From the NCBI GenBank assembly GCA_038322815.1, contig JBBQGG010000007.1, forward strand, positions 1,218 to 65,217: DNA of 64,000 nucleotides, read 5' to 3'. The stretch comes from Candidatus Kapaibacterium sp. (GTDB lineage: Bacteria; Bacteroidota; Ignavibacteria; Palsa-1295). Position 1 is the stretch's first letter; the number at the start of each line of letters is the position of its first letter. Below, piece by piece: positions 48,305 to 53,357 of this stretch. Below the pieces are notes generated by a model, which saw only the letters and a program-made list of their open reading frames with translations, was not told the DNA's origin and made no database searches. A program made the position numbers and the translations under genes.

Positions 48305-49381
48305 ATGACAAATCAGCAAGAACAATTTTTATCTAAGCTTATCGAATGCCCAGGTCCATCGAACTATGAAGAGAACGTGCAAAAACTTTGGCGCAGCGAA
48401 GTTTCGGCTGTTGTGCCGGATATAACTATTGATGCACATGGTAATAACGTTGCCACAGTAAGCGGCTCGGAGAATATTTCCGTTCTGATCGTCGGTCATG
48501 CCGATGAGATCGGACTTATTGTTCGCTACATAAATAGCGAAGGATTTATTTATGTTTCAAAAGTCGGAGGAGTCGATCCGGCAATTTTGCCGTCGCATCG
48601 TGTCCGTATTCTTTCTTCGAAATCAAACAGTACTGTTCATGGCGTGATCGGCAAAACTGCGCCCCATCAATCGAGTGCAGATGAAAAAGATAAGAAGATC
48701 ACCTATTCCGATGTTTGGATCGATATCGGCGCAAAAGATAAAGCGGAAGCAGAATCACTCGTCGGAATCGGCGACGTCGTGATCTATGGCGAAGGCTATC
48801 AACGATTGACAGGTACAAAGGCAACGGCACGCTGCTTCGATAATCGCATCGGAATTTATGTCGTTGCCGAAGTTCTAAAAAATCTTGTAAAAAGAAAAGC
48901 GGAATTGAAAGCTACTGTGTACGGAGTCAGTTCGATTCAGGAAGAGACAGGCGTATGGGGTGCGGGCAGAGCGGGATATGCTCTGGAACCGACACTTGCA
49001 ATTGCTATCGACGTTACACCTTCAACTGATTCACCCGGTATTTCAAAAGTGTTATGGGGTGAAATTAATGTTTCCAAAGGTGCAGTATTTAATAAAGGCA
49101 TCCGAAGCAACAGAAAGATCACACAGCTTTTTATTGATACAGCAGAGAAACATAAAATTCCTTATCAGATCGAAGTTGATAACGGCCATACTTCCACCGA
49201 TGCCGACCCAATCAGCCAACAGCGCGCCGGAATTCCTATCGGAGTACTCAGCTCCGCCACCCGCTATTTGCATTCATCTTGTGAAGTGCTTGATCTCGAT
49301 GATCTCGATCATTGTGTTAACCTCCTGACAGAATTTATTTTGAGTTTGAATGCGAAGACGGATTTTAGAAGCGGAGTGTAA
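48305..49381 (+). CDS. M42 family metallopeptidase (glutamyl aminopeptidase/FrvX-like)
   Basis: 358 aa with the M42 pattern (VGHADEIGLIV..., metal-binding His/Asp/Glu positions). Confidence 0.8.
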   Translation: MTNQQEQFLSKLIECPGPSNYEENVQKLWRSEVSAVVPDITIDAHGNNVATVSGSENISVLIVGHADEIGLIVRYINSEGFIYVSKVGGVDPAILPSHRVRILSSKSNSTVHGVIGKTAPHQSSADEKDKKITYSDVWIDIGAKDKAEAESLVGIGDVVIYGEGYQRLTGTKATARCFDNRIGIYVVAEVLKNLVKRKAELKATVYGVSSIQEETGVWGAGRAGYALEPTLAIAIDVTPSTDSPGISKVLWGEINVSKGAVFNKGIRSNRKITQLFIDTAEKHKIPYQIEVDNGHTSTDADPISQQRAGIPIGVLSSATRYLHSSCEVLDLDDLDHCVNLLTEFILSLNAKTDFRSGV

Positions 49382-49390
49382 GGGGCAAGG

Positions 49391-50713
49391 ATGAAGGATG
49401 CAGGTAAAAGTAAAGACGAATTAGATAAACTTCGGAAACTCAGTACAGAAATAGATAACTTGGAAAGCCCATACAAAGCAATTGTCTCAGTTATGGTTTT
49501 GCGTGAAGGCTGGGATGTATAGAACGTAACTTCAATTGTCGGCTTGCGCCCTTTTGGTGCGGATAGTAAAATCCTTCCGGAGCAGACGGTAGGCAGAGGA
49601 CTCAGATTAATGTTTCGTGGTTCAGGTGTTCAGGAAAAAGTCAGCGTAGTCGGTACTGCTGCTTTTATTGAATTCGTCGAAGGCATTAAGAAAGAAGGCG
49701 TTGAAATAGATTATGCTCCTATGGGACCGGGTACGACCGGCAAAACTCCATTGATTATCGAAGTTGATAGAGAGAATAAGAAAAAGAATATTGATGCACT
49801 CGATATTAAATTACCAATTCTGCAAGCCCGCATTGCACGAGATTACAAAAATCTTCATGAGCTAAATGTGGCCAACTTCAATTTCCAACCTGCAAAGATT
49901 ATTAGCTTTTCTGAAGCACAGCAGCGGGACATTGTATTCCGAGAAATTGTCGATGGCGAAATAAGTCATACAACACAAATGGATGGAAATCTCGAAATCA
50001 GCCCACAAAATGTTATCGGCTTCTTTGCACAAAATATAAGCCGCGAGCTTCGTCTAGTCGGTGCGAACGATGTACTTTTCGGCAAAGTGAAGCAATTCAT
50101 TACCGGACATTTGTTCGGAAAAGAAGTTGAAATCGCTGATCCAAATATCCTTCGGAATTTATCTGAGTCAGTTACTAAATCCCGGATATATGAAACGTTC
50201 AAAGGTGAGATTAATAAGTTAACCGTTCGGGATTCAGGCACCACGCGCATTTCTTCACACATAAAGTTAAGCGAGGCAAGACCTGTAGTAGTCAACGATC
50301 AGCCGGTTCTCTACCCGAAGCGATCAATTTTTAATAAAGTAGTTGGCAATAATCTTGAACTTGATTTTGCAAGCTTTCTCGATGATGCAAAAGATATTCT
50401 TTCTTTCGCTCGTAACAGGCAACGAGATGGTTTAAGTATTGAATATCAGCCATCGTCAGGTGGTATAGCAACCTATGTGCCTGACTATATCGTAAAAGAA
50501 CGCGATGATTCTATCTGGATAATAGAGACGAAGGGCAGAGAAGATATTGAAGATCCCCGCAAAATTGCCCGACTTCAGGATTGGTGCAAGGATGCAACTG
50601 CGCATGACGGGAAGATAAAGTACCAGGCAATGTTCGTACGGGAAGAGGATTTCAAGAAGTACCAGCCTACGAAGTTTTCGCAGGCGAACGAGTTATTCGT
50701 CAAAAAGAAATAA
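49391..50713 (+). pseudogene. 3' remnant of a type III restriction endonuclease Res subunit gene (helicase motifs V-VI plus C-terminal PD-(D/E)xK nuclease), with an in-frame TAG
   Basis: The frame opens immediately after the M42 stop. ...AIVSVMVLREGWDV*NVTSIVGLRPFGADSKILPEQTVGRGLRL matches Res motif V (ALREGWDNPNV) and motif VI (Q.IGRGLRL), with a stop in between. The C-terminal VPDYIV...IWIIETKG is nuclease-like. The N-terminal ~600 aa of a normal Res are absent. Confidence 0.6.
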
Positions 50714-50720
50714 AAACATT

Positions 50721-51047
50721 ATGGCAAAAGAAAAAGCGAGGCTCACTCTTCGTATCAAGCGCAAATGGCTTGAAGAAATCGTCTTCGGGAAGAAGCGGAT
50801 CGAGTGTCGGGACAATACAAAATTTTATGCGCAACGTCTTCTCGAGACAGACGAAGATGGTGATCTAGTGTGCAGAAAGTTTGATGAAGTGTATTTCTAT
50901 TGCCCAATCGGGCAGACGGGTCAGAATCTTATGGACGTCGTACAATACAAAAAGACTGACTGGAACGAGAAGATCAATCAGATGGAAATTTATTTAGGAA
51001 AGGTCATTTCGCATAATCTGCCGACGCCGAAGGTTAAGAAGAAATAA
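50721..51047 (+). CDS. ASCH domain protein
   Basis: 108 aa with the GxKxxExR signature (FGKKRIECR) characteristic of the ASCH/PUA-like fold. Confidence 0.55.
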   Translation: MAKEKARLTLRIKRKWLEEIVFGKKRIECRDNTKFYAQRLLETDEDGDLVCRKFDEVYFYCPIGQTGQNLMDVVQYKKTDWNEKINQMEIYLGKVISHNLPTPKVKKK

Positions 51048-51054
51048 GCGGGTG

Positions 51055-51141
51055 CGCCCACCTCACCCCAGCCCTCTCCTTAGGAAGGAGAGGGAGTTTT
51101 TTTAAATTCCCTCTCCTTTATAAGGAGAGGGTTAGGGTGAG
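51055..51141. repeat. hairpin repeat element (double copy, cruciform-capable) between the ASCH and DUF559 genes
   Basis: CCTCACCCCAGCCCTCTCCTTAggaAGGAGAGGGAG...CCCTCTCCTTTATAAGGAGAGGGttaGGGTGAGG. Two CCCTCTCC/GGAGAGGG hairpins sit inside an outer CCTCACCC/GGGTGAGG inverted repeat. Confidence 0.75.
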
Positions 51142-51155
51142 GTAGAGCCCGAGGG

Positions 51156-51536
51156 TTAGGGTGTGGTAGATCCCAGAAGCTTTTCTTTTGCTACTCGTTC
51201 TATCTCTGTCAGAACATCATCAATTGTGTTTGTCACTTCGGTATCTGTGAATCTGAGAAAAGTTATTTTATATCCTTCGATAATTTTTTGCCGCCATTCG
51301 TCTTTTCTTTTTGCATCTTCGCTATCGTGCGTTGCTCCATCGAGTTCGATGGCAAGTCTTATTTCAGGCGCATAAAAATCGAGGACGAAGCCGCCGACGC
51401 TGTATTGGCGGCGGAATTTTATTCCGGCAATTTGGGAGTTGCGGACACGTCGCCAAATCAGCTTTTCCGAGAAAGTAGAGTCATGCCTGAGCGCGCGGCG
51501 TTTTTCTTTATGCTCGGATTTGTTGTAGAGTTTCAT
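51156..51536 (-). CDS. DUF559 (Vsr-like endonuclease domain) protein
   Basis: 126 aa. The ...GFVLDFYAPEIRLAIELDGATHD...ITFLRF pattern is typical of DUF559. Flanked on both sides by a CCTCACCCCAGCCCTCTCCTTA hairpin repeat. Confidence 0.75.
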   Translation of the reverse strand: MKLYNKSEHKEKRRALRHDSTFSEKLIWRRVRNSQIAGIKFRRQYSVGGFVLDFYAPEIRLAIELDGATHDSEDAKRKDEWRQKIIEGYKITFLRFTDTEVTNTIDDVLTEIERVAKEKLLGSTTP

Positions 51537-51556
51537 GGTGCAAAAATACGAAGAGA

Positions 51557-51592
51557 CCTCACCCCAGCCCTCTCCTTATAAAGGAGAGGGAG
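51557..51592. repeat. hairpin repeat element, copy 2 (between DUF559 and AlbA_2)
   Basis: CCTCACCCCAGCCCTCTCCTTATAAAGGAGAGGGAG. Confidence 0.75.
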
Positions 51593-51601
51593 TTTGAAGC
51601 T

Positions 51602-52078
51602 TTGATTGCCCAAGGAGAAAGCCATGAATTGGAATTCAAAGAGACTGGACGCTGGGATGTACGGCAGGGAATGGTTAGCCCGGTTATGGGGCAGATACTC
51701 GTGAAGACAGTTGCCGGTTTCATGAATTCAGAATCCGGAGGTTCACTCATCATTGGAGTAGATGATTCAGGAATTGCTATTGGTATCGACCGAGACCTTG
51801 CGACATTCGGGAAGAAGCATAATCCAAAAGATGAATTCGAGCAGTACCTTCAAAATCTCATCCTTTCTCGTTGCGGAAAAGAATCTGCGGCATTAGTAAA
51901 GATTATTTTCCACACTACCCAAGGAAAAGAACTCTGTAAAATCGAAGTAAAGCCATCGCTGAAGCAAGTGTATGTTACCGAAGACTCTGTTGAGAAATTT
52001 TATGTCCGCTCAGGCAATACAACGCAAACACTTTCGATGAGTGAAGCACATGAGTATATCCGTCACAGATTCCGGTAA
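51602..52078 (+). CDS. AlbA_2 (Schlafen-like, 'divergent AAA') domain protein
   Basis: ESHELEFKETGRWDV...QILVKTVAGFMNSESGGSLIIGVDDSGIAIGI matches the AlbA_2 core (E.LEFK...LKTI.AFAN..GG.L.IGVDD.G.VVG). Confidence 0.6.
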   Translation: MIAQGESHELEFKETGRWDVRQGMVSPVMGQILVKTVAGFMNSESGGSLIIGVDDSGIAIGIDRDLATFGKKHNPKDEFEQYLQNLILSRCGKESAALVKIIFHTTQGKELCKIEVKPSLKQVYVTEDSVEKFYVRSGNTTQTLSMSEAHEYIRHRFR

Positions 52079-52091
52079 GGAGTTTAGATAA

Positions 52092-52130
52092 CCTCACCCC
52101 AGCCCTCTCCTTATTTTGAAGGAGTGGGAG
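52092..52130. repeat. hairpin repeat element, copy 3 (after AlbA_2; degenerate right arm)
   Basis: CCTCACCCCAGCCCTCTCCTTATTTTGAAGGAGTGGGAG. Confidence 0.7.
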
Positions 52131-52386
52131 TTATCAAGCTTAAAGCGAAAAGCGAAAAGCTAAAATGGGGAATTGAATTCGGTCCACAATTTTATTTTCT
52201 TTCCTTCCAACCCCGACCCCGATTATTATTCTATAAAAATTATATTTCATTGTATCTTAATCTTTTACAAACTTTTTTATTTTTTTTCTGTGAAATTCTT
52301 GGATTTTCTATTTTTATGTTGTATATTAGTTGGTGCTCTGATAGGCACCTATTAAAAATATATATTATTTTGGCATTCTGCCGAAA

Positions 52387-52520
52387 AGTAGTTAGTAGAT
52401 AGTAGTTAGTAGTGAGGAAAAAGAGTCCGGCTACTTACTACTAACTACTAACTACTTACTACTTACTACTTACTACTTACTACTAACTACTTACTACTAA
52501 CTACTATCTACTTACTACTG
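52387..52520. repeat. heptanucleotide microsatellite arranged as an inverted repeat (AGTAGTT x4 | spacer | AACTACT/TACTACT x~13)
   Basis: Left arm AGTAGTTAGTAGATAGTAGTTAGTAGT (52387-52413) is the reverse complement, with one mismatch, of the distal end of the right array (52494-52520). About 90 nt of TACTACT/AACTACT units lie between. Ends 34 nt upstream of ORF 52554. Confidence 0.8.
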
Positions 52521-52553: not shown

Positions 52554-53357
52554 ATGATACCGAAAGACGTGAAAACAGTATATATAAAGAATATTCCAGT
52601 CGCTCACGGTGAGATCAGCGTTGTGCTGGCTGACGATGCGGAAAAATTGATGCGCCATTCTTGCCAAGTTGGAGAACAAATTAAGCGCGCAGGGCTTGGC
52701 GTCCTTCTCATTAATTGCGGAATGAGCGACCGTCGCTTCCGCAATCATGCGCGTGAAGCAACGACAGCACTGGAGGGTCAGCCGTTCGAGCACATGCCCT
52801 ACGCAACCGGAACCGATGCACCCAAAGAGATGCTGATCCATAGTTCGGTCGCCGGCGATCTTATCGGCGAGATGGATCTGCTCAGCGGACTTGTTGCCCA
52901 GTGCGCGATCGGTGTCGTAATAATCGCCGGATGGGAATGGACTTCATCCGGATATCGCCGGAAAGAACGGCTGCTCTATGCCATACGTGAGATGATGAGG
53001 AAGTATGATGTAGCCGTAGTCATTTATGCATCAGCCAAGACGAATTCGCAGCCCGGCAAATGTGACCGCGGCGGAATCGGCAGATTAGCGATGCTTGCCG
53101 TCTCGATCCTGAATTTGGATGCTGCTGATATGTTAGAATCGGTTTCTCCGAAGCCGCTGCCCATCGTTGCAACTAAAAAAGATTGGGAAGATGCCGAGCG
53201 AAGTGCACAATTACTTGGCAGTAAAATCAATGAGTTAGGGGGGGGTCGATGGTCGATCGTCGATAGTCGGGGAATGAGGGCAAAAGGATTGAAGGCGCCG
53301 GTGAAGTCAACATTATTGATGAAACCGAAGATTTTAACCGGGAATCAGGCAGGGTAA
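52554..53357 (+). CDS. hypothetical protein, possibly a degenerate RecA/DnaB-like P-loop fold lacking Walker A
   Basis: 267 aa. Alternating beta-strand-like hydrophobic runs (GVLLINCG, VVIIAGWEW, VAVVIYASAKTNSQ), but no GxxxxGK[ST] motif. Good RBS (AGGAG) upstream. Lies in the island next to the AlbA_2 and DUF559 genes. Confidence 0.35.
   Translation: MIPKDVKTVYIKNIPVAHGEISVVLADDAEKLMRHSCQVGEQIKRAGLGVLLINCGMSDRRFRNHAREATTALEGQPFEHMPYATGTDAPKEMLIHSSVAGDLIGEMDLLSGLVAQCAIGVVIIAGWEWTSSGYRRKERLLYAIREMMRKYDVAVVIYASAKTNSQPGKCDRGGIGRLAMLAVSILNLDAADMLESVSPKPLPIVATKKDWEDAERSAQLLGSKINELGGGRWSIVDSRGMRAKGLKAPVKSTLLMKPKILTGNQAG

Follow-up and report, generated by a model that had tools for sequence, protein, structure and literature searches.

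Inverted intrastrand triplex motifs bound a DUF559 gene unit in a Kapaibacteria-like genome and may be the substrate of its predicted nuclease

The stretch analysed here, hereafter the window, comprises 64,000 nucleotides of contig JBBQGG010000007.1 from Candidatus Kapaibacterium sp. (assembly GCA_038322815.1, positions 1,218 to 65,217). Between 51060 and 52130 it carries four units of about 40 nt and one partial copy of a structured repeat that was found nowhere else in the window, and two of these units form the inverted ends of a small unit whose sole gene encodes a protein of the DUF559 family, which may be their cognate nuclease (Table 1). An earlier note on this DNA had reported a hairpin repeat at the gene boundaries between an ASCH-like open reading frame (ORF), the DUF559 gene and an AlbA_2 ORF, and the repeat exists as described there. 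The three loci that it listed stand, but they hold four units, and the perfect 10-bp stems ascribed to them apply to three of these, which have 3-nt loops; in the fourth (52103-52128) the stem contains one mismatch (AAGGAGTGGG) and the loop is 6 nt long. The block CCTCACCC, which had been read as an outer inverted repeat, belongs to every unit. A further block that had been overlooked, the third, is a mirror-repeat tail, and it identifies the unit as a known intrastrand triplex motif (TM).

Table 1. Features of the repeat-bearing locus and its neighbours, in window coordinates. For the TM units the strand is that of the G-rich reading.
Feature	Position	Strand	Description
L-DUF559-F unit, ~500 bp	51101..51598	-	Bounded by 43-nt inverted arms
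DUF559 gene, 126 aa	51156..51536	-	Pfam PF04480; Vsr-like / EDxHD PD-(D/E)XK nuclease fold
TM unit 1	51060..51099	-	CCCTCTCCTT-CCT-AAGGAGAGGG-CTG-GGGTGAGGT
TM unit 2, downstream (F) end of DUF559 unit	51104..51143	+	Gene strand: ACCTCACCC-TAA-CCCTCTCCTT-ATA-AAGGAGAGGG
Partial unit	51151..51174	+	24-nt tandem duplicate (92%) of tail region 51127-51150
TM unit 3, upstream (L) end of DUF559 unit	51556..51598	-	Gene strand: hairpin-CTG-GGGTGAGGT
TM unit 4, solo, after AlbA_2 stop	52091..52130	-	One stem mismatch, 6-nt loop, 10/10 triplets canonical
ASCH-like ORF, left neighbour	50721..51047	+	Pfam match below threshold; outside repeat system
AlbA_2 (Schlafen-like) ORF	51602..52078	+	Pfam E=5e-18; 5'-truncated at unit 3; outside repeat system

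A search with the 22-mer core CCTCACCCCAGCCCTCTCCTTA, allowing up to 3 mismatches, returned four matches in the window (51061, 51557 and 52092 on the plus strand and 51121 on the minus strand), against 0 expected from 100 shuffles. With CCCTCTCCTT and up to 1 mismatch, ten matches were found against 2.35 expected, and eight of the ten lie within 51072-52128. Read in the plus-strand sense of unit 1, a unit runs ACCTCACCC-(CAG/TAA)-CCCTCTCCTT-loop-AAGGAGAGGG-A(G/A)TT; in this ACCTCACCC-first reading, units 1, 3 and 4 are on the plus strand and unit 2 is on the minus strand, with the G-rich reading on the opposite strand in each case. The G-rich strand presents in turn a pyrimidine arm (CCCTCTCCTT), a loop, a purine arm (AAGGAGAGGG), a 3-nt linker (CTG or TTA) and a tail (GGGTGAGGT). 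This tail mirrors the purine arm (GGAGAGGG / GGGTGAGG), being reversed and uncomplemented with some A changed to T, and when placed antiparallel to the purine arm each of its positions gives a G.G-C, A.A-T or T.A-T triplet. As single-stranded DNA, a unit could form a hairpin together with an antiparallel triple helix.

With a purpose-written detector of this triplex architecture, each of the four window units scores 10 triplets and no more than 1 mismatch. Their blocks are 10 nt long, where the motif calls for stems of at least 8 nt. Canonical triplets number 9-10 of 10 per unit, with no more than one hairpin mismatch and loops of 3-6 nt, and the linker is 3 nt throughout (unit 2 was scored by the detector with 1 nt). 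Unit 1 was returned with 10 triplets, 0 stem mismatches and 1 triplet mismatch, while the detector's remaining matches in the window were AT-rich 7-mers at the frequency seen in shuffles. Units 1 and 2 together make an imperfect 84-nt palindrome, of which unit 1 is the outer half. As single-stranded DNA this palindrome is predicted to fold at -35 kcal/mol (z = -10.7) by ViennaRNA, which models the hairpin only and no triplex.

Repeats known as BoxC, PIT or TM have been recognised since the 1990s and are among the most conserved short bacterial repeats, numbering in the thousands in enterobacteria and in the hundreds per cyanobacterial genome. The published TMECO pattern is 5'-CCCTCNCCC-N3-6-GGGNGAGGG-N3-GGGNGAGGG-3', for which BoxC and PIT are earlier names (Holder et al. 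2015, NAR 43:10126, PMC4666352); the name PIT element comes from Hoyne et al. 2000. The window blocks CCCTCTCCT / AGGAGAGGG / GGGTGAGGT agree with the TMECO blocks at 8/9 positions each and are thus a close, inexact variant. Exact copies of the TMECO pattern were found in viral and E. coli searches seeded with the window core, and a similarity search from this core led to the E. coli hrpB-mrcB intergenic pair, which is TMECO 1+2 (Table 1 of PMC4666352). An Rfam search of 50-53 kb in E-value mode gave only sub-threshold miRNA-like matches caused by the palindrome, and no family. The window repeats are TM/BoxC/PIT-type intrastrand triplex motifs of the G/C-rich family. They share with TMECO the three-block architecture and a near-identical sequence (CCCTCTCCTT-N3-AAGGAGAGGG-N3-GGGTGAGGT in the window), and are likewise intergenic, multi-copy, present as single and inverted-pair copies, and located at rearrangement breakpoints. 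In contrast to TMECO, their arms are A/T-extended (CTCCTT/AAGGAG) and their host is Ignavibacteriota/Kapaibacteria-like, whereas TMECO has been catalogued in Proteobacteria. They also differ from published TMs in being the inverted ends of a protein-coding unit. In vitro, the isolated strand of TMECO folds as a stable triplex (Holder et al. 2015, PMC4666352; Hoyne et al. 2000). No function was found for TMs in the published survey, nor were conserved flanking genes or "activities that provide genetic mobility", and TM loci were rearranged more than control sites (PMC4666352).

The protein between the two inverted units matches PF04480 with E=2.1e-27, scoring 95.6 bits where the gathering cut-off is 20.6 and aligning over profile positions 3-107 of 109, and residues E64, D66, H70 and D79 of its E-x-D-x3-H ... 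D motif are invariant in 36 homologs. The AlphaFold2 model has a pLDDT of 92. Using this model, the best Foldseek match in the PDB was 3HRL, an uncharacterised DUF559 protein of Neisseria gonorrhoeae that was also returned by a PDB sequence search, followed at E=4e-4 (TM-score 0.80 on the target) by 3R3P, the catalytic domain of I-Bth0305I, an EDxHD homing endonuclease, and further down by the nuclease domains of PvuRts1I and AbaSI. Vsr, DUF559 and DUF2726 are grouped together in Pfam. Because the catalytic residues are invariant and the fold matches nucleases, the window enzyme is probably active. No characterised DUF559 protein of the window's subfamily was found in the searchable literature.

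The arms that bound the DUF559 unit (51101-51143 and 51556-51598) are 91% complementary, and their tails point towards the gene. On the gene strand the order is unit 4, the antisense AlbA_2 ORF, unit 3 (hairpin then tail, the L end), 19 nt, DUF559 from ATG to stop, 12 nt, unit 2 (head then hairpin, the F end), 4 nt and unit 1. The final codons of DUF559 lie in the partial unit, whose TAA linker serves as the stop codon. Three independent assemblies contain this locus. A DUF559 protein with 74-75% identity, encoded in a Candidatus Kapaibacterium metagenome-assembled genome (loci L124/L128), has unrelated neighbours (an AhpC/TSA-family gene and dus) and the same two ends; the DNA alignment between the window and L124 runs from the upstream hairpin to 3 nt past the downstream hairpin, and nothing else is shared. 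Since homology is confined between the two hairpins, the unit of inheritance or transfer is the L-DUF559-F segment of about 500 bp. Short-read contigs often end a few hundred bases past DUF559 genes (L330-L339; L001 starts about 930 nt before its DUF559), as would fit assembly breaks at repeats.

To place this arrangement in a broader context, we sampled 80 DUF559 loci from one-genome-per-species contigs of more than 10 phyla, including Cyanobacteria, Armatimonadota, Patescibacteria (candidate phyla radiation, CPR), Nitrospirota, Chloroflexota, Poribacteria and Bacteroidota/Ignavibacteriota. A GC-rich TM lies within 200 nt of the gene at 74 of the 80 loci, and TM density is 5.49 per kb beside the gene against 0.23 per kb in the rest of the ±3 kb, a 24-fold local enrichment; the check that the earlier note had proposed, enrichment of the motif at DUF559 genes, is therefore strongly positive. 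The tail is directed towards the gene in the nearest upstream TM at 50 of 67 loci and in the nearest downstream TM at 40 of 57, and the L-gene-F arrangement occurs 35 times against 9 for the reverse. Loci with the reversed arrangement (head-hairpin upstream, hairpin-tail downstream; 9/80, among them L152, L163, L170 and L184) include Dehalococcoidia and CPR (Spechtbacteria).

In several lineages, DNA homology between loci is limited to the gene and its TMs: L132 and L135 are 90% identical from -70 to +66, and L195 and L198 are 95.6% identical from -60 to +17. In heterocystous cyanobacteria, upstream synteny is kept and homology ends directly after the downstream TM. The upstream tail usually ends 11-50 nt before the start codon and the downstream head begins -57 to +28 from the stop codon, and the predicted proteins of homologs often read into the motif, with C-terminal ...PHPNPLLGKERE, ...APHPSPLPGG and ...TSP* (ACC TCA CCC TAA) and N-terminal ...PLLYMERAGVR. 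As in the window, the TM head and its TAA linker make up the last codons and stop of the DUF559 homologs P0005, P0013 and P0107.

The classes of arm and tail vary by taxon, and the mirror rule is kept in each: AAGGGGAGGG occurs with GGGTGGGGT, AAGGAGGGG with GGGGAGGT and AAGGAGAAGGG with GGGATGAGGT. Across the 80 loci a hairpin's own tail scored above permuted tails in 2000/2000 shuffles, and at least 90% canonical triplets were reached by 35% of hairpins compared with 6% in a direct-repeat control. Solo TMs further out in a locus belong to the same arm class as those flanking DUF559. This covariation of arm and tail supports the view that triplex geometry, or at the least mirror symmetry, is constrained. 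The linkage between DUF559 and TMs is tight, oriented and phylogenetically broad, with covarying sequences.

Such tightly fixed positions, in which the upstream tail stops 11-50 nt short of the start codon and the stop codon is overlapped by the downstream head, are also what might be expected if the flanking TMs acted in cis to insulate, terminate, silence or stabilise the transcript of a possibly toxic nuclease gene, with solo copies put to unrelated uses. Unit 1 does resemble an intrinsic terminator, its plus strand presenting a hairpin followed by TTTTTTT in a position that is terminator-like for the ASCH-like ORF. We nevertheless regard a role in cis as improbable. Unit 1 is the only one of the four window copies with a T-run, which follows just 13% (10/75) of the metagenome copies listed, and published tests of PIT/TM found neither promoter nor terminator activity nor any effect on RNA polymerase (Holder et al. 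2015, PMC4666352), so the suggestion of a shared terminator in the earlier note is not supported. Its proposal of ribosome-binding-site sequestration fared no better, as AAGGAG lies 25-60 nt from the DUF559 start. Purine-motif triplexes are not formed in RNA (PMC4666352), and an action in cis would leave the conservation and covariation of the third-strand block unexplained.

The motif was then viewed from its own side, in 697 kb of motif-anchored metagenome DNA and in a viral set, both assembled from the matches listed. The core motif is extremely common in both scans (counts are lower bounds), and about 5% of the listed copies adjoin DUF559 (6/132, or 5/89 of those with enough flank). Among these same matches, DUF559 domains lie within 150 nt of a motif in 6 of 7 cases in the metagenome set and in 2 of 2 in viral contigs, and 4 of 8 L..F pairs spaced 250-700 nt in the metagenome set contain DUF559; no other gene recurs within such pairs. 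Among close TM pairs, the L..F, F..L and direct orientations are all represented, in roughly random proportions. These proportions argue against the idea that L..F pairs are deleted DUF559 units, arising as miniature inverted-repeat transposable elements (MITEs) do by deletion, and therefore single units seem to be the dispersed entity. In a variant that recurs at many viral loci (e.g. L014, L047, L068, L076, L118), the 3' arm GGGGCGAGGG stands opposite CCCTCTCCCC with a conserved hairpin mismatch, and this variant corresponds to the commonest "A mm" type in E. coli. A conserved mismatch beside a Vsr-like (mismatch endonuclease) gene family may deserve a look.

In E. coli the DUF559 gene is ycjD, whose product ends in ...RRSPSP* within a degenerate TM arm; a full TMECO follows about 170 nt downstream, before fabI (loci compared: L208, K-12 1351039-1351830, and L341, Nissle). 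BoxC was originally described beside envM/fabI, the locus of ycjD. The gene is polymorphic, being present in 3377 of 5426 complete E. coli genomes, and TMECO-like places number 1-27 per genome. Using a chimeric ycjD+TMECO query, we sampled 37 chromosomes with ycjD and 22 without it, evenly down the ranking. TMECO places number 11-26 in the former (median 18, n=37) against a median of 2.5 in the latter (n=22; 14/22 with 4 or fewer), a difference that is significant (Mann-Whitney p = 6e-9) and confounded by phylogroup. In strains lacking ycjD, genes for a TetR regulator and an RND efflux adaptor subunit occupy the space between sapF and fabI, and no empty site was seen.

The neighbouring ASCH-like and AlbA_2 ORFs lie outside the repeat system. 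Homologs of the AlbA_2 protein have 25-100 extra N-terminal residues, homology of the window ORF ends exactly where unit 3 begins, and its reading frame runs upstream into that unit (…RPHPSPLLIKEREFEALIAQGES…); as homology is lost exactly at unit 3, this is a truncated gene and not a cassette, as had been proposed. Relatives L342 and L344 (about 80% DNA identity) are syntenic with the window up to the stop of an M42 peptidase gene at 49381 and then diverge, and neither a TM nor a clean empty site was found in 2 x 15 kb of their DNA. The lineage-specific segment 49382-52550 contains ORFs without a Pfam match (49391-49522 and 49544-50713), the ASCH-like ORF, the DUF559 unit and the truncated AlbA_2. 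The 49.4-52.5 kb region looks like a decayed, lineage-specific patch of gene remnants with TMs at the joints, which fits the published association of TMs with instability. Immediately after unit 4 lies a short tandem repeat (52142-52165, AAAGCGA x3.4), and further heptamer tandem arrays (AGTAGTT x3.9 at 52387-52413, and inverted CTACTTA x12.7, also of period 21, at 52431-52519) form a long imperfect inverted repeat at 52387-52519, just upstream of an ORF of 267 aa without a Pfam match (52554-53357).

It had further been suggested that the repeats are integron-like or Xer/dif-like recombination sites delimiting DUF559 and AlbA_2 cassettes. The units do sit exactly at gene boundaries, and the palindrome of units 1 and 2 would fold strongly when single-stranded. 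Yet no tyrosine or serine recombinase and no transposase gene was found between 30.8 and 62.6 kb, RYYYAAC/GTTRRRY core pairs number 0 on both strands of 50900-52300, and target-site duplications are lacking. AlbA_2 is truncated and its homologs have no such flanks, and DUF559 is the only recurrent bracketed gene across the 80 loci. We consider cassette sites of this kind very unlikely indeed. The other suggestion, that the hairpins are MITE footprints, was borne out in so far as the units are copies of a dispersed MITE/REP-like repeat family (REP, repetitive extragenic palindrome). With MITEs and small insertion sequences (IS) the element shares its small size, its terminal inverted repeats (about 40 nt) and the existence of paired non-coding derivatives (L..F pairs no more than 60 nt apart). 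Its main unit, however, encodes a protein, target-site duplication is absent, no DDE, HUH, serine or tyrosine transposase is present, and single units are dispersed too.

Based on these observations, our overall interpretation, to which we assign a probability of roughly 0.6, joins what is shown, TM-family repeats as the inverted ends of a DUF559 unit, with the proposal that DUF559 is their cognate nuclease. DUF559 would be a trans-acting nuclease of the TM repeats, analogous to the REP-associated tyrosine transposase (RAYT) of REP elements and of another enzyme class. It may recognise the folded or palindromic repeat and nick or cut there, after which host repair or recombination would copy, move or delete units in a homing-like manner. 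Cutting and repair of this kind would account for the scatter of solo copies and also for the reported instability of genomes around TMs. In the window, the remaining two units and the partial copy would be solo or junction copies of the family. That DUF559 is the cognate nuclease and acts on folded or palindromic units, which host repair then copies in a homing-like manner or rearranges, is a reasonable possibility, which we place at even odds or somewhat less. More tentative still is the fullest form of the model, in which a Vsr-like hydrolase would cut the hairpin-triplex or the palindromic tail-to-tail junction at flanking and solo copies alike, driving their spread, turnover and rearrangement; this would amount to a second system of REP/RAYT type in more than 10 phyla and to the first natural protein client of an intramolecular DNA triplex.

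REP/RAYT systems (REPtrons/REPINs) are among the nearest known parallels. In both, a short, structured, extragenic repeat exists in many dispersed solo or paired copies, inverted copies of it lie on either side of a single-copy nuclease gene that is largely inherited vertically, and the repeat class is lineage-specific with matching copies beside the gene. E. coli has one ycjD against 11-26 TMECO copies, and in the 64 kb seen of the window organism all 4 copies are at the DUF559 locus; many solo repeats together with a rare gene that is nearly always flanked by them is the REP/RAYT pattern. The enzyme, however, is a PD-(D/E)XK hydrolase with no obvious rejoining chemistry, not an HUH Y1 (IS200/IS605-like) transposase, and unlike REP the TM repeat has a triplex-forming third block and a sequence unusually conserved across phyla. 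The DUF559-TM arrangement is analogous to a REPtron but falls outside the REPtron family. With Vsr and EDxHD homing endonucleases such as I-Bth0305I (PDB 3R3P) it shares the catalytic fold and motif in a small, selfish-looking gene. In contrast to I-Bth0305I, the window protein is free-standing (no intron or intein), has 126 aa and lacks a large N-terminal DNA-binding region; it also differs from homing endonuclease genes in being bounded by inverted structured repeats.

Several points weigh against a cognate nuclease. A PD-(D/E)XK hydrolase performs no strand transfer alone, so that any mobility would have to draw on the host. Solo copies away from DUF559 make up about 95% of the motif, and phage-like contigs L058, L077 and L289 carry TMs between many consecutive unrelated genes with no DUF559 in the stretch. 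The DUF559 gene itself looks positionally stable: the exact protein (P0050; 10 listed places among 24 contigs) has the same neighbours throughout, and no two identical DUF559 copies were found in differing contexts. Searches with the exact ASCH, AlbA_2 and DUF559 proteins gave the same context only, and no filled-versus-empty site pair emerged from the relatives, the E. coli strains lacking ycjD or the exact-protein searches. Nor does a direct duplication of 5 nt or more flank any unit or cluster. In E. coli, phylogroup confounds the correlation between ycjD and TMECO, and O157:H7-type genomes have no ycjD yet 12 TMECO places. Finally, in vivo footprinting did not detect the triplex (PMC4666352).

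Much of this would suit the main rival to a cognate nuclease, namely that an ancestral DUF559 gene became trapped between two TMs and the package then spread horizontally or vertically, the TMs themselves being generated or moved by replication slippage, by another enzyme or by recombination between copies. A mere passenger could exist as a single copy that keeps its place within populations and from one cyanobacterial genus to the next, as DUF559 does, while most TMs are solo, close pairs take all orientations in about random ratios and some E. coli strains without ycjD keep 12-20 copies. A frozen package, on the other hand, would not be expected to differ in flanking TM class from phylum to phylum while matching the local solo copies and keeping the mirror rule. 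That the nuclease active site is conserved, that no other gene recurs inside L..F pairs and that no transposase or integrase was found near TMs (PMC4666352) also speak against a trapped gene, which we therefore hold to be unlikely, though less so than the other alternatives.

The repeat is already known; its link to DUF559 appears to be new and resembles REP/RAYT with a different enzyme class and a triplex-forming repeat. We found no report linking DUF559 to the triplex motif in the searchable literature, although most subscription journals were outside its reach and absence there is no proof. DUF559 is one of the large nuclease families of "unknown function", and the linkage gives it a candidate natural substrate, just as it gives the TM repeat a candidate enzyme for its origin and dynamics. 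E. coli YcjD is a ready model. For annotation, the linkage accounts for the "PHPxPLL...GEG / ...TSP*" tails that recur on DUF559 proteins and for assemblies breaking off at these loci. Should the link prove functional, the REP/RAYT paradigm would gain a further enzyme class, and intramolecular DNA triplexes a biological role.

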